Shown here piece after piece: positions 1-64,000 of a stretch of 64,000 nucleotides of DNA. Position numbers and translations under genes: made by a program. The stretch is from NCBI RefSeq assembly GCF_044324875.1, contig NZ_CP172185.1. One strand, 5' to 3'. The notes under the pieces are model-generated. The model was not told where the DNA came from. It saw nothing but the letters and a program-made list of their open reading frames with translations, and made no database searches. The stretch comes from Escherichia coli. GTDB lineage: Bacteria; Pseudomonadota; Gammaproteobacteria; Enterobacterales; Enterobacteriaceae. Numbering within the stretch: position 1 is the stretch's first letter; the number at the start of each line of letters is the position of its first letter.

Positions 1-828
1 CAGGAACTGCTGGAAGAGGCCCAGAAACTCGGTCTTGGCGCGCAGTTTGGCGGTAAATACTTCGCGCACGACATTCGCGTTATCCGTCTGCCACGTCACG
101 GCGCATCCTGCCCGGTAGGCATGGGCGTCTCCTGCTCCGCTGACCGCAACATTAAAGCGAAAATCAACCGCGAAGGTATCTGGATCGAAAAACTGGAACA
201 CAATCCAGGCCAGTACATTCCACAAGAACTGCGTCAGGCCGGTGAAGGCGAAGCGGTGAAAGTCGACCTTAACCGCCCGATGAAAGAGATCCTCGCCCAG
301 CTTTCGCAATACCCGGTATCCACCCGCTTGTCGCTCACCGGCACCATTATCGTGGGTCGAGATATTGCACACGCCAAGCTGAAAGAGCTGATTGACGCCG
401 GTAAAGAACTTCCGCAGTACATCAAAGATCACCCGATCTACTACGCGGGTCCGGCGAAAACCCCTGCCGGTTATCCATCAGGTTCACTTGGCCCAACCAC
501 CGCAGGTCGTATGGACTCCTACGTGGATCTGCTGCAATCCCACGGCGGCAGCATGATCATGCTGGCGAAAGGCAACCGCAGCCAGCAGGTTACCGACGCG
601 TGCCATAAACACGGCGGCTTTTACCTCGGTAGCATCGGCGGTCCAGCGGCGGTACTGGCGCAGCAGAGCATCAAGCATCTGGAATGCGTCGCTTATCCGG
701 AGCTGGGTATGGAAGCTATCTGGAAAATCGAAGTAGAAGATTTCCCGGCGTTTATCCTGGTCGATGACAAAGGCAACGACTTCTTCCAGCAAATCGTCAA
801 CAAACAGTGCGCGAACTGCACTAAGTAA
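1..828 (+). CDS. fumB: Class I fumarate hydratase, C-terminal part; 5' end lies upstream of the window
   Basis: Reading frame is open from base 1 to the stop at 826-828; the 235 aa shown match the C-terminus of Fe-S class I fumarase (ends NKQCANCTK). Position beside yjdF-melBA points to fumB rather than fumA. Confidence 0.85.
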
Positions 829-950
829 CCTCTTCGGCCCAGCGCCTGGCAGCATGCTGCCAGGTGATCCCCCTGGGCCACCTCTTTTGCGATTGTAATT
901 TCACGCTTGCTGGTGAATAGTCAGTATTTTCCCTGACTTGCGAACTCACC

Positions 951-1580
951 ATGACCCGCACACTCAAGCCGTTAATTCTTAACACCGGCGCACTGGCGCT
1001 AACGTTAATCCTGATTTATACCGGCATTTCGGCCCATGACAAACTCACCTGGCTGATGGAAGTGACACCGGTGATTATTGTCGTGCCGCTACTGCTTGCC
1101 ACCGCCAGACGTTATCCGTTAACGCCGCTGCTCTATACGCTCATCTTCTTTCACGCCATCATCCTGATGGTCGGCGGGCAGTATACCTACGCGAAAGTGC
1201 CCATCGGTTTTGAGGTGCAAGAATGGCTGGGATTGAGCCGTAATCCGTATGACAAGCTGGGGCATTTTTTCCAGGGGCTGGTGCCTGCACTGGTGGCACG
1301 AGAAATTCTCGTTCGCGGGATGTACGTGCGCGGACGTAAAATGGTGGCGTTCCTGGTCTGCTGCGTGGCGCTGGCGATAAGCGCGATGTATGAGTTAATC
1401 GAGTGGTGGGCAGCGCTGGCAATGGGTCAGGGAGCGGATGATTTTCTCGGCACCCAGGGCGACCAGTGGGACACGCAATCCGATATGTTCTGCGCGCTGC
1501 TTGGCGCATTAACGACGGTGATATTTCTCGCTCGCTTTCATTGCCGCCAGCTACGGCGCTTTGGCTTGATAACCGGATAA
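951..1580 (+). CDS. yjdF: Inner membrane protein YjdF (DUF2238 family)
   Basis: 209 aa ORF with multiple hydrophobic helices; conserved neighbour of melB/fumB in E. coli. Confidence 0.8.
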   Translation: MTRTLKPLILNTGALALTLILIYTGISAHDKLTWLMEVTPVIIVVPLLLATARRYPLTPLLYTLIFFHAIILMVGGQYTYAKVPIGFEVQEWLGLSRNPYDKLGHFFQGLVPALVAREILVRGMYVRGRKMVAFLVCCVALAISAMYELIEWWAALAMGQGADDFLGTQGDQWDTQSDMFCALLGALTTVIFLARFHCRQLRRFGLITG

Positions 1581-1595
1581 CAACGTGCGCTTTGT

Positions 1596-1633
1596 TGACG
1601 CCGGATGCGGCGTGAATTCCTTATCCGGTCTAC
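1596..1633. repeat. REP (repetitive extragenic palindromic) element between convergent yjdF and melB
   Basis: gccggatgcggcgtgaa...ttatccggtctac motif typical of E. coli REP/PU sequences. Confidence 0.6.
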
Positions 1634-1718
1634 AAAATTTGCAAATCCAAAGCATTACATTAAGACATGGCCTGATAAACATATCGCATCAGGCCATTTT
1701 CGTTAGCTATTGTCCACG

Positions 1719-61406: not shown

Positions 61407-61462
61407 AATTATACTCCCCAACAGATGAATTAACGAACTGAACACTGAAAAGAGGCAGATTT

Positions 61463-61786
61463 ATGTCCCATCAGAAAATTATTCAGGATCTTATCGCATG
61501 GATTGACGAGCATATTGACCAGCCGCTTAACATTGATGTCGTCGCAAAAAAATCAGGCTATTCAAAGTGGTACTTACAGCGGATGTTCCGCACGGTGACG
61601 CATCAGACACTTGGTGATTACATTCGCCAACGCCGCCTGTTACTGGCCGCCGTTGAGTTGCGCACCACCGAGCGTCCGATTTTTGATATCGCAATGGACC
61701 TGGGTTATGTCTCGCAGCAGACCTTCTCCCGCGTTTTCCGTCGGCAGTTTGATCGCACTCCCAGCGATTATCGCCACCGCCTGTAG
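61463..61786 (+). CDS. soxS: AraC-family superoxide response activator
   Basis: 107 aa; recognised SoxS sequence (MSHQKIIQDLIAWIDEHIDQPLNIDVVAKKSGYSKWYLQRMF…). Confidence 0.95.
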   Translation: MSHQKIIQDLIAWIDEHIDQPLNIDVVAKKSGYSKWYLQRMFRTVTHQTLGDYIRQRRLLLAAVELRTTERPIFDIAMDLGYVSQQTFSRVFRRQFDRTPSDYRHRL

Positions 61787-61788
61787 TT

Positions 61789-63375
61789 TTATTGCCCGCG
61801 CGTTAACTCCCGCGCGGGTAATTGCTCCATCCATTGCATAAACACCTGCGGCGGCATCGCCTTCGCAAAGAACCATCCCTGGCAATAGCGCACGCCGCGT
61901 TTGCGCAGCCAGTTAACCTGTTCCTCAGTTTCGACGCCTTCAGCGATCGTTTTTAACCCCAGACTGTGCGCCAGCTCGATGATGTGTTCCGCAATCAAAT
62001 GACTGGTTTTATGGGTGGTCAGCGTCTCAACAAACGATTTATCGATTTTCAAAATATCGACATTCAATGATTTAAGGTTATGCAAGTTAGAGTAGCCAAT
62101 ACCAAAATCATCAATTGCCACTTCGTAACCAGCCTGGCGGAAAGCCAGAATAATCGGCGTCATTTTGTCGACATCAAGAAATGCATGTTCAGTCACTTCA
62201 AATTTAATTTGCTGCGGACGCACCGCATATTGCTCTGTTTTCTGGTTGGTTCGCGCTATCAACCGTGACGTATGAAAATCGGAGGCCGACAGGTTAATAG
62301 AAACATAGCGATCGACATGTGTTGCCAGGTACACGCCCAGATCGCGGAAGACATTATCAATAACATAATCAGTTATCTGTTCGATCATCCCCTCCTTTTC
62401 TGCCAGCGGAATAAACTCTGCCGGATTCATTACTTGCCCCTGCTCACCAGGCCAACGTATCAATGCTTCAGCGCCGGTACATTTTTCTGTTTTGATATCG
62501 ATTATTGGCTGGTAATAAAGGCAAAGTTGATGTTTTTCGAGGGCGCGTTGCAATTTGCGTTTGGGAGACAAATAGTTTTGTCGAATACGTAGCCAGAGTA
62601 ATAACAGAACAAGACTCCCCAAAATACCGGCGGGTAACGCAAAAATAAGATGATTATAAAAATGCGCTATAAGACGTTGATATGAAGTCGCAACAATGGC
62701 TGCAATCGGGCGTTTTGTCGAATAAACTGTCGCATATAAATAGCCATTTCTTTGTACGGTTAAATCATTCAAATGAATCAGCGGAGAAAACGTTGCTGCC
62801 GAGGCCTCGTTGCTTAACGAGAAAAAGGTTTTTGTCACCGTATCATACACACCCCATTGCAATGTCGGATCATCGGACATCACTTCACTCCAGAAGAGAG
62901 GGTTGATAACCGCCACATAATTTCCCCGCTGCATATAGGTCATTTTATAGCCAGAGAAAAAAGGCGTATCGCGGTAATAATAGATAGAAACGTTAGGTTC
63001 ACGCTTATAATCGGCCGGTGCAATCGTATAGCCGTTTACAGGCGCTATCAGCGATGAGCATAAAAAATGGTTATCACGGGCATAGATCAATTCATTAATA
63101 TAAAGATAGCCACGAATAATATTCAACATTCGCTTTTGATGGGCTGGAGTGCAAACTTGCCCCTGATAGCGTTCAGCAGCATCGCTCACTAAATCTGCCT
63201 GGCGAATGACCAGCTCGGATTTATCCAGCGCCAGCTGAGCAAAAGTTTGGAGCTGGCTATTCACTTCTGATTTTGCCCAAAGGAAGGCAATCCATAGCGA
63301 CAGAATGATGGGAAAGAGAACTAAAAAGATAATGCCCGGCAACGCCAGTAATTGGTGTCGTGCACGATGACTCAT
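61789..63375 (-). CDS. pdeC: c-di-GMP phosphodiesterase with periplasmic CSS domain and EAL domain
   Basis: About 528 aa; N-terminal TM plus periplasmic Cys-containing domain, second TM, C-terminal EAL domain (…TGAEALIRW…). Start approximate. Confidence 0.9.
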
Positions 63376-63804
63376 TGCTATCAATTTCCTGCCTGTTTAT
63401 ACCCGGCCATTGCAAGGTGAAAACCCTGGGCACCGACGTCTTTAGATAAATCTTACGGTATAAATAGCACTTTTGCCTGATTTGAAATTGATACCTTTTT
63501 AATGGTCACCTGAATAAAAATAATTCATTGATATTCAAATTAATTTTCTACAGGAATGCAGAGGCGGCGGGAAGATATGCCCTTAATGCCACTGAAAAAA
63601 CCACATAATCTGTACGGCAATAAAAGTCACGGCCTAATCTGGCTAACAAACAATCAATTGTGATATAGTTCACAAAATTAATGAAACAAACAGAGTGTTT
63701 CATTTTTGTGTCCTGCAAGCCCCGCGATAGCCAGATTGTATCACGCCTCCCGTGAACAACGCCGCGCTGTCCGAGGCATCGGCTCTTTTCAGAGGAATTG
63801 TTTG

Positions 63805-64000
63805 ATGGCTACCCTCACCACTGGCGTGGTTCTTCTTCGCTGGCAACTTCTTAGTGCCGTAATGATGTTTCTGGCCAGCACACTCAACATCCGTTTTCGT
63901 CGGTCTGATTATGTCGGGCTTGCAGTGATCAGCAGCGGTCTGGGCGTGGTTTCTGCCTGCTGGTTCGCAATGGGGTTGCTTGGTATCACAATGGCGGATA
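63805..64000 (+). CDS. yjcB: Small membrane protein YjcB, 5' part (continues beyond window end)
   Basis: ATG at 63805 opens a hydrophobic frame (MATLTTGVVLLRWQLLSAVMMFLAS…) running to the end of the window; missing from the ORF track because no stop lies within the window. Confidence 0.6.
   Translation, partial: MATLTTGVVLLRWQLLSAVMMFLASTLNIRFRRSDYVGLAVISSGLGVVSACWFAMGLLGITMAD

Follow-up and report, generated by a model that had tools for sequence, protein, structure and literature searches.

Introduction

The closest described counterpart of the DNA analysed here is the chromosome of Escherichia coli K-12 MG1655 from yjcB to fumB (4,274.8-4,346.5 kb). The window, by which we mean the whole analysed stretch of 64,000 nucleotides from E. 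coli (assembly GCF_044324875.1, contig NZ_CP172185.1), contains the same genes in the same order and orientation, with 93.5-99.4% nucleotide identity per 1-kb bin. K-12 and the window are also alike in their spacers, in the small RNAs (sRNAs) sraL/RyjA and STnc630, and in the selenocysteine insertion sequence (SECIS) of fdhF. They differ in that the window is without alsRBACEK and most of rpiB (-6.84 kb), has, at two spacers, a single bacterial interspersed mosaic element (BIME) unit instead of six (about -0.5 kb per spacer), and bears an enterobacterial repetitive intergenic consensus (ERIC) repeat in the acs-yjcH spacer. An als-less haplotype is represented by enteroaggregative E. coli (EAEC) 042, in which the als operon is absent and allose is not used (PMC2808357). 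The ERIC repeat, also called the intergenic repeat unit (IRU), has a 127-nt E. coli (RU-1) consensus, which we took from PMC2759123. The rdcA-rdcB gene pair, which we compared with the Eleos (LeoA/LeoBC) defence system, has been linked by experiment to the activating of the diguanylate cyclase DgcE (PMC6510439).

An earlier note on this DNA, made from the letters alone, had reported that neither a mobile element nor a defence island nor a foreign insertion was to be seen. Alignments of the full window, gene integrity, searches for tRNA genes, repeats and Rfam families, and Pfam, PADLOC and PHROG scans all agree with that statement. We are highly confident that the window is ordinary, vertically inherited E. 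coli core chromosome, which departs from K-12 through losses and the turnover of small repeats. The data support a window without an integration site, a prophage remnant or any autonomous mobile element, and equally without a CRISPR (short palindromic repeats, clustered and regularly interspaced) array, a defence system or, among the coding sequences scanned (60 amino acids or longer), a recognisable toxin-antitoxin pair. Mobile-type sequence is confined to non-autonomous repeats, namely repetitive extragenic palindromic (REP)/BIME units and one ERIC of ~120 bp. None of the hallmarks of a genomic island, prophage or integrative element was found in the window, be it a mobility gene, a tRNA or direct-repeat site, a private segment or similarity to phages.

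A core chromosome segment collinear with K-12

1..64000, no strand assigned: part of the E. coli core chromosome, running from fumB' to yjcB' and, in inverted orientation, collinear with K-12 MG1655 4,346,507 to 4,274,848

We split the window into three parts (1-22000, 22001-43000 and 43001-64000) and compared them with 5,426 complete E. coli genomes by megablast. The thirds were matched in 5,425 of these genomes, and each third was covered over at least 80% of its length in 5,360 to 5,403 of them. Against its best-matching complete genome, every third aligned in one piece over 100% of its length, at 99.2% identity for the first, 98.3% for the second and 98.8% for the last. Not a single window base was left unaligned to the best-match genomes, and strain-private sequence is therefore absent. 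About 90% of the window is coding. As read from the annotations under the best matches and from the K-12 MG1655 record, the gene order begins with fumB', yjdF, melB, melA, melR, adiA, adiY, adiC, eptA, basR, basS/pmrR, proP, rdcB and rdcA (crfC), continues through yjdM, yjdN, phnC-P, yjdP, an rpiB fragment, yjcS, ytcA, mdtNOP, fdhF, yjcO and gltP, and ends with nrfG-A, ytcB, acs, yjcH, actP, yjcF, yjcE, ghxP, soxR, soxS, pdeC and yjcB'.

Alignment to K-12 produced five long collinear blocks separated by four breakpoints, none of which adds 300 bp. At the first breakpoint (20123-20205, yjdM-yjdN), K-12 is longer by ~500 bp. The second (32355-32562) opposes 208 bp of the window to 6.84 kb of K-12 sequence comprising alsK, alsE, alsC, alsA, alsB, alsR and the 5' part of rpiB. 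At the third (42950-42988, yjcO-gltP), K-12 has six tandem REP units and the window one, and at the fourth (53428-53615, acs-yjcH), 188 bp of the window stand in place of 162 non-homologous bp of K-12. All four breakpoints are thus deletions, contractions or swaps of less than 200 bp. Only the 208-bp and 188-bp stretches fail to align to K-12, and both occur in other E. coli (1,568 and 335 of the 5,426 genomes, respectively). The earlier note had proposed looking by alignment for an insertion of 300 bp or more relative to all references; with no base unaligned to the best matches and gaps of 208 and 188 bp against K-12, there is none. Its description of K-12 synteny as complete except for the als genes needs one amendment: the order is complete from fumB to yjcB and alsRBACEK has been lost, but rpiB has also been reduced to a relic.

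The genes themselves are well preserved. Each of the 56 K-12 genes that are matched over their full length (56/56) is intact, with the same length and no frameshift or premature stop. The sole in-frame stop among them is the selenocysteine UGA of fdhF, which is explained by the SECIS element. The phnE gene (22731-23561) falls 8 bp short of its pseudogene counterpart in K-12, with two instead of three copies of the 8-bp unit GCTGGCGT near 23187. K-12 phnE is a pseudogene because of the third copy, and phnE is in frame here because that extra unit is absent. Judged from its reading frame, the phosphonate permease PhnE should be functional in this strain, unlike in K-12. The spacer ghxP-soxR is the longest (545 bp, with sraL/RyjA inside it), ahead of pdeC-yjcB (429 bp), rdcA-yjdM (401 bp) and gltP-nrfG (341 bp), and these four all align to K-12 inside the collinear blocks with 95.8-98.6% identity.

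Among the 5,426 genomes, none is identical to the window, and the best-match genome differs for each third (98.3-99.2% identity). The phn genes are unusually diverged, being 93.2-97.2% identical to K-12 when the flanks are mostly at 97-99%. The identity pattern resembles a mosaic produced by recombination. Relative to the best-match genome CFSAN061763, a length difference of 11 bp within 8256-8579, probably located in the adiA-adiY spacer, offsets adiY and everything downstream.

Searches for mobile, phage, toxin-antitoxin and defence sequences

ARAGORN predicted no tRNA or tmRNA gene in the window, and neither Tandem Repeats Finder (TRF) nor a repeat search detected a CRISPR-like array of regular 24-40 bp direct repeats, in line with the earlier note, which had seen no tRNA integration site and no CRISPR repeats. 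TRF returned only three short tandem repeats, all of them within genes, and a 21-nt repeat in yjdP was the sole notable one. The long repeats of the window are REP copies and short chance-level pairs. An Rfam scan of the window reported only STnc630, sraL, SECIS and naRNA4/REP.

The window contains 254 open reading frames (ORFs) of at least 60 amino acids, 198 of which were not attributed to a K-12 gene. We scanned 196 of these, leaving out soxS and the fdhF segment upstream of the selenocysteine UGA, both mis-sorted by the classifier. The 196 ORFs gave five Pfam matches, none above its curated cut-off, and no PADLOC match, which is the outcome that the earlier note had expected from a domain search of ORFs of this size. 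We found no recombinase gene and, as it had also stated, no integrase or transposase: the real proteins, 56 in number, all have orthologues in K-12 and carry housekeeping annotation, and the 196 other ORFs are without a Pfam match above the cut-off. The best of the rejected matches, DUF5662 (E 1.4e-5) on an ORF at 51423-51926 antisense to acs, reached 22 bits against a 27-bit cut-off and is compositional, caused by a His/Arg-rich stretch. Matches of RE_Bpu10I (E 0.0018), PLAC8, DUF3833 and Type_III_YscG to shadow ORFs are at chance level for 196 queries.

Similarity to phages could be traced to labels rather than to phage genes. The PHROG 'tail protein' family phrog_27398 (E 5.6e-164) matched the full-length purine permease GhxP (59018-60367, minus strand); the family is mislabelled, and its 'tail protein' label is almost certainly wrong. 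Matches to the phage collection were mostly to 501-kb Salmonella chromosome contigs and to short unannotated contigs that match host genes only, and the three others listed were very short. The 501-kb contigs (e.g. AFYI01000007.1) are mis-filed in that collection. The short contigs, of which there are many, go by the names 'Salmonella phage S.Kent 1-2-1' or 'Escherichia phage ECO95 1-6-1'; they match ordinary host genes with 78-90% identity to E. coli and may be packaged or contaminating host DNA.

Pfam and PADLOC showed no toxin or antitoxin domain in ORFs of at least 60 amino acids, shorter ORFs being outside the scan. Rfam detected no type I antitoxin RNA in the window, and the K-12 annotation of the collinear region includes no toxin-antitoxin pair. 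For defence genes, the 56 real proteins were scanned with profiles of Pfam, PADLOC-DB v2 (2023) and PHROG. The PADLOC matches fell on the ABC ATPases PhnC, PhnK and PhnL, the BasR receiver, the MerR helix-turn-helix of SoxR and, weakly, the dynamin domain of RdcA. No specific, full-length PADLOC match in neighbouring genes was found among the 56 real proteins or the 196 shadow ORFs. Apparent matches to mad3, mad8, AriA, PtuA, GajA, AbiLi and similar models trace to the generic fold of the three ABC ATPases, the mad1 match is the helix-turn-helix of SoxR and the PDC-M60C match is the receiver domain of BasR, again generic folds.

The als-rpiB deletion scar

The largest difference from K-12 lies between yjdP and yjcS, where the following features were recognised.

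32217..32562, minus strand: scar of the als-rpiB deletion, standing in place of 6.84 kb of K-12 sequence in the alignment
32217-32354, minus strand: remnant of rpiB nt 313-450, 99% identity
32355-32424, minus strand: remnant of rpiB nt ~84-153, ~90% identity, joined directly to the nt 313-450 piece
32433-32484: remnant of the alsK stop and last nucleotides with the downstream flank, 8 bp past the rpiB piece, 79% identity
32485-32562: AT-rich 78-bp stretch specific to the als-less haplotype, with no K-12 counterpart, followed by the yjcS upstream region
32217-32534, minus strand: chimeric rpiB' ORF of 105 codons

Nucleotides 1-83 and 154-312 of rpiB are absent from the window. The internal gap of 159 nt is in frame and flanked by two CTGGCT motifs. 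The persistence of the rpiB pieces and the alsK-flank remnant means that the locus was once complete and was emptied by at least two deletions. One of them took rpiB nt 1-83, alsR, alsBACE and alsK, and the other the 159 nt within rpiB. The remnants and junctions are shown directly by the alignment, and the order of events and the mechanism are our reconstruction. Since the CTGGCT microhomology lies at the ends of the internal rpiB deletion, we infer that als and rpiB were lost through illegitimate or slippage-type recombination. The AT-rich 78-bp stretch (32485-32562) holds a palindrome, CCGGTGTTTTTTATTAAAAAACGTACCGG on the minus strand.

The same als-less junction is present in 1,568 of the 5,426 genomes (29%), and the window copy is 97.4-99.8% identical to the others. 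The als-less haplotype known from EAEC 042 has this very junction, with the 105-codon rpiB' adjoining yjcS, and shows no substantive difference from the window. At both the als and the ERIC junctions, the nearest relatives are VCSW5 and VCSW7, strains from soil and sediment. With the als genes lost as in the als-less EAEC 042, the strain is predicted to be unable to grow on D-allose.

The rpiB' ORF matches only positions 102-138 of the ~138 positions of Pfam LacAB_rpiB, with its last ~37 residues, and does not contain a complete domain. Because only these C-terminal residues match, its product would be unable to serve as an isomerase, and the ORF is best regarded as a non-functional relic. It is open in all seven sampled haplotypes (7/7), which differ at 10 sites, 5 nonsynonymous and 5 synonymous, with a divergence about that of the neighbouring spacer. 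These seven haplotypes, an underpowered sample, gave no evidence of constraint on rpiB'. Selection on the ORF is accordingly unsupported, half of the variable sites being nonsynonymous and the divergence resembling that of the adjacent spacer. PGAP nevertheless annotated rpiB' as an intact protein in 12 of the 12 sampled junction-bearing genomes, under the name 'RpiB/LacA/LacB family sugar-phosphate isomerase' (WP_001183282.1, WP_001183287.1 and WP_001522249.1).

ERIC and REP repeats in the spacers

The repeats of the window, all in spacers, are as follows.

53494..53614, no strand assigned: ERIC/IRU (RU-1) repeat resembling a miniature inverted-repeat transposable element, acs-yjcH spacer, inside the 188 bp not aligning to K-12 (53428-53615)
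20123..20211, no strand assigned: single BIME/REP325 unit (Rfam naRNA4), yjdM-yjdN; K-12 has six tandem 100-bp units
42948..42986, no strand assigned: single REP, yjcO-gltP; K-12 has six tandem 113-bp units
22679..22769, no strand assigned: REP pair (naRNA4-type), phnD-phnE
28004..28088, no strand assigned: REP pair, phnK-phnL
1599..1634, no strand assigned: REP, yjdF-melB
53417..53452, no strand assigned: REP directly downstream of acs

The element between acs and yjcH has the properties of an ERIC/IRU: it is an imperfect palindrome of ~120 bp, where the family has ~127 bp, and it is intergenic, similar to the consensus and dispersed in further copies. Positions 53496-53613 align to positions 5-123 of the 127-nt consensus with 74% identity, and the alignment score of 55 compares with a maximum of 16 among 200 shuffles. 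Its fold is an extended, imperfect hairpin (-68.8 kcal/mol, z -8.9), and genomes have a median of 7 places with related copies of ~123 bp. Relative to the known family it is diverged, being 74-77% identical to the consensus and to the other copies. The complete ERIC-bearing stretch of 163 bp is found at 80% coverage or more in only 335 genomes (~6%). Part of the acs-yjcH spacer has been swapped for an ERIC hairpin repeat. We know of no demonstration that ERIC elements in general transpose. The Rfam family V_AS5 ('Vibrio RNA AS5') also matches 53494-53614 end to end, below its threshold (41.9 bits, E 1.2e-5); we did not adopt this identity, as ERIC accounts for the match, which suggests that the V_AS5 family is itself ERIC-derived. 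The ERIC is the only mobile-type sequence that differs in presence from K-12, and it is non-autonomous and well below 300 bp.

The remaining repeats are REP sequences. Six spacer sites at the ends of genes show the diagnostic ~35-bp GC-rich palindromes built on a GCC(G/T)GATG core, and two of the six exceed the gathering score of Rfam naRNA4. At two of them, a tandem BIME/REP array has contracted from six units to one. The claim that spacers are explained by promoters, REP elements and terminators therefore stands for the six REP sites and fails for one spacer element, which is a strain-variable ERIC and not a REP.

Alternative explanations

Three features bear on alternative readings of the window.

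55772..57064, plus strand: yjcF (EspX5-type pentapeptide-repeat protein according to PGAP), strongest compositional outlier, present in K-12
20847..31660, plus strand: phnCDEFGHIJKLMNOP operon, high-GC outlier (58-62.5% GC), ~11 kb
16271..19374, minus strand: rdcA (crfC/yjdA, dynamin-like GTPase) and rdcB (yjcZ), weak LeoA/LeoBC match

The yjcF gene has 33% GC, 32% GC at third codon positions (GC3) and a tetranucleotide z of 3.4. The phn operon lies at the opposite extreme, with 55-62.5% GC, 66-78% GC3 and tetranucleotide z up to 2.6. adiY has 41% GC and the rdcA-yjdM spacer, the 'phnA upstream' region, 32%; the pdeC-yjcB region (62-64 kb) is also atypical. All outlier genes are shared with K-12. 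The earlier note had named adiY, yjcF and the phnA upstream region as the only atypical segments and as known genes, which is correct for all three, but its list was incomplete, as the phn operon and the pdeC-yjcB region are outliers too. We used Salmonella Infantis SARB27, from a contig mis-filed in the phage collection, as a comparator. At this locus it has no rdcAB and no yjdF (window 951-1580), a LysR regulator with LrgAB occupies the actP-yjcE slot instead of yjcF, and lpxO-phnO stands where E. coli has phnC-P, yjdP, yjcS and mdtNOP. Because blocks are absent or replaced in this comparator, the region is a mosaic between genera, while it is core within E. coli. Salmonella Infantis further carries, in the interval from soxR to ghxP, a gene for a glutathione S-transferase that is missing in E. 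coli.

The window might on these grounds hold ancient, fixed foreign insertions (yjcF and phn, together with further blocks like rdcAB and yjcS-mdtNOP), so that 'no foreign insertion' would be true only within the species. We take this as a real possibility without leaning towards it: the deviating composition of yjcF and phn and the absent or replaced blocks in Salmonella speak for it, but the blocks are without mobility genes, tRNA or convincing flanking repeats (around yjcF, only chance-level matches in AT-rich DNA were seen), and every third of the window, blocks included, is covered to at least 80% in 5,360 to 5,403 of the 5,426 genomes, the third with yjcF in 5,403. Salmonella moreover keeps phnO, phnA and phnB, which suggests loss of phn there rather than gain in E. 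coli. Several points weigh against the reading of the window as ordinary core chromosome. The foreign-looking yjcF (33% GC) and phn operon (~60% GC) are lacking or replaced at the locus in Salmonella, and ancient horizontal acquisition of some blocks, now fixed in E. coli, is likely. The ~120-bp ERIC is strictly a mobile-type repeat and sits at a strain-variable site, being absent there from 94% of genomes. ORFs of fewer than 60 amino acids were not scanned against the protein libraries, the absence of type I toxins resting on collinearity with K-12 and on Rfam, and defence systems described after PADLOC-DB v2 (2023) would escape the scan. An insertion of als into K-12, with the window representing the ancestral empty site, might be entertained from the variability of the slot and from the 29% of genomes with the als-less junction. 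In O157:H7 strain 2149, the als slot beside yjcS is occupied by another sugar cluster (ABC transporter, D-lyxose/D-mannose isomerase, aldolase, kinase and two-component system), and the yjdP-yjcS slot accordingly varies within the species; in the same strain, mdtO is split by an IS1203 insertion. The two rpiB pieces (nt ~84-153 and 313-450) and the alsK downstream sequence at the junction are explicable only as left-overs of a complete locus, however, and on this evidence we dismiss the insertion model as next to impossible. The absence of the als genes is instead to be read as a deletion in this lineage, as the rpiB and alsK-flank remnants indicate. That the yjdP-yjcS slot is a recurrent exchange point of sugar-catabolism cassettes and rpiB' a retained, expressed small protein seems to us highly improbable. 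The same holds, at a similarly low level of credence, for rdcA-rdcB as a cryptic, dynamin-type (Eleos-like) anti-phage module. It alone shows a match to a defence model more specific than those of generic receiver, ATPase or helix-turn-helix domains. RdcA contains Dynamin_N and matches PADLOC LeoBC (E 5.4e-6, 23.8 bits) and LeoA (E 8.7e-6, 23.1 bits), the pair is missing from the same locus in Salmonella, and bacterial dynamin-like proteins are described as able to act in phage defence. Like Eleos, rdcA-rdcB is a two-gene operon with a dynamin-like GTPase domain. The RdcA matches are, however, weak and extend over only part of each profile (positions 123-439 of 601 and 103-188 of 559), confined to the shared GTPase region. 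The partner RdcB belongs to the YjcZ family, has no PADLOC match and is not a second dynamin. Instead of two dynamin-like GTPases matching LeoA and LeoBC, as in Eleos, we thus found one partial match of 23-24 bits and none for RdcB. The rdcAB genes have a demonstrated role in activating DgcE, are members of the flagellar regulon (PMC6510439) and reside among housekeeping genes in essentially all E. coli.

Other features of the window

14297..14462, minus strand: STnc630 sRNA region (Rfam), overlapping pmrR and the 3' end of basS
40430..40484, plus strand: fdhF SECIS element (Rfam)
60780..60920, plus strand: sraL/RyjA sRNA (Rfam), in the 545-bp ghxP-soxR spacer

The 21-nt tandem repeat of yjdP (3.9 copies, 31885-31965, minus strand) encodes DDRRRQL repeats, with no difference in length between the gene and its K-12 counterpart.

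Implications

Nothing in the window is new, and the negative finding is already-known biology. Its value is that of a clean negative control, in which the negative judgement of a reader without tools was upheld by alignment, composition and profile searches. The window also bears on annotation hygiene: PGAP presents the rpiB relic as an intact isomerase, phrog_27398 carries a 'tail protein' label for a purine permease family, and a phage collection includes mis-filed host DNA. For the strain itself, the reading of the window as core chromosome shaped by losses and small-repeat turnover leads to two predicted phenotypes, namely that it would not grow on D-allose and that its PhnE should be functional.

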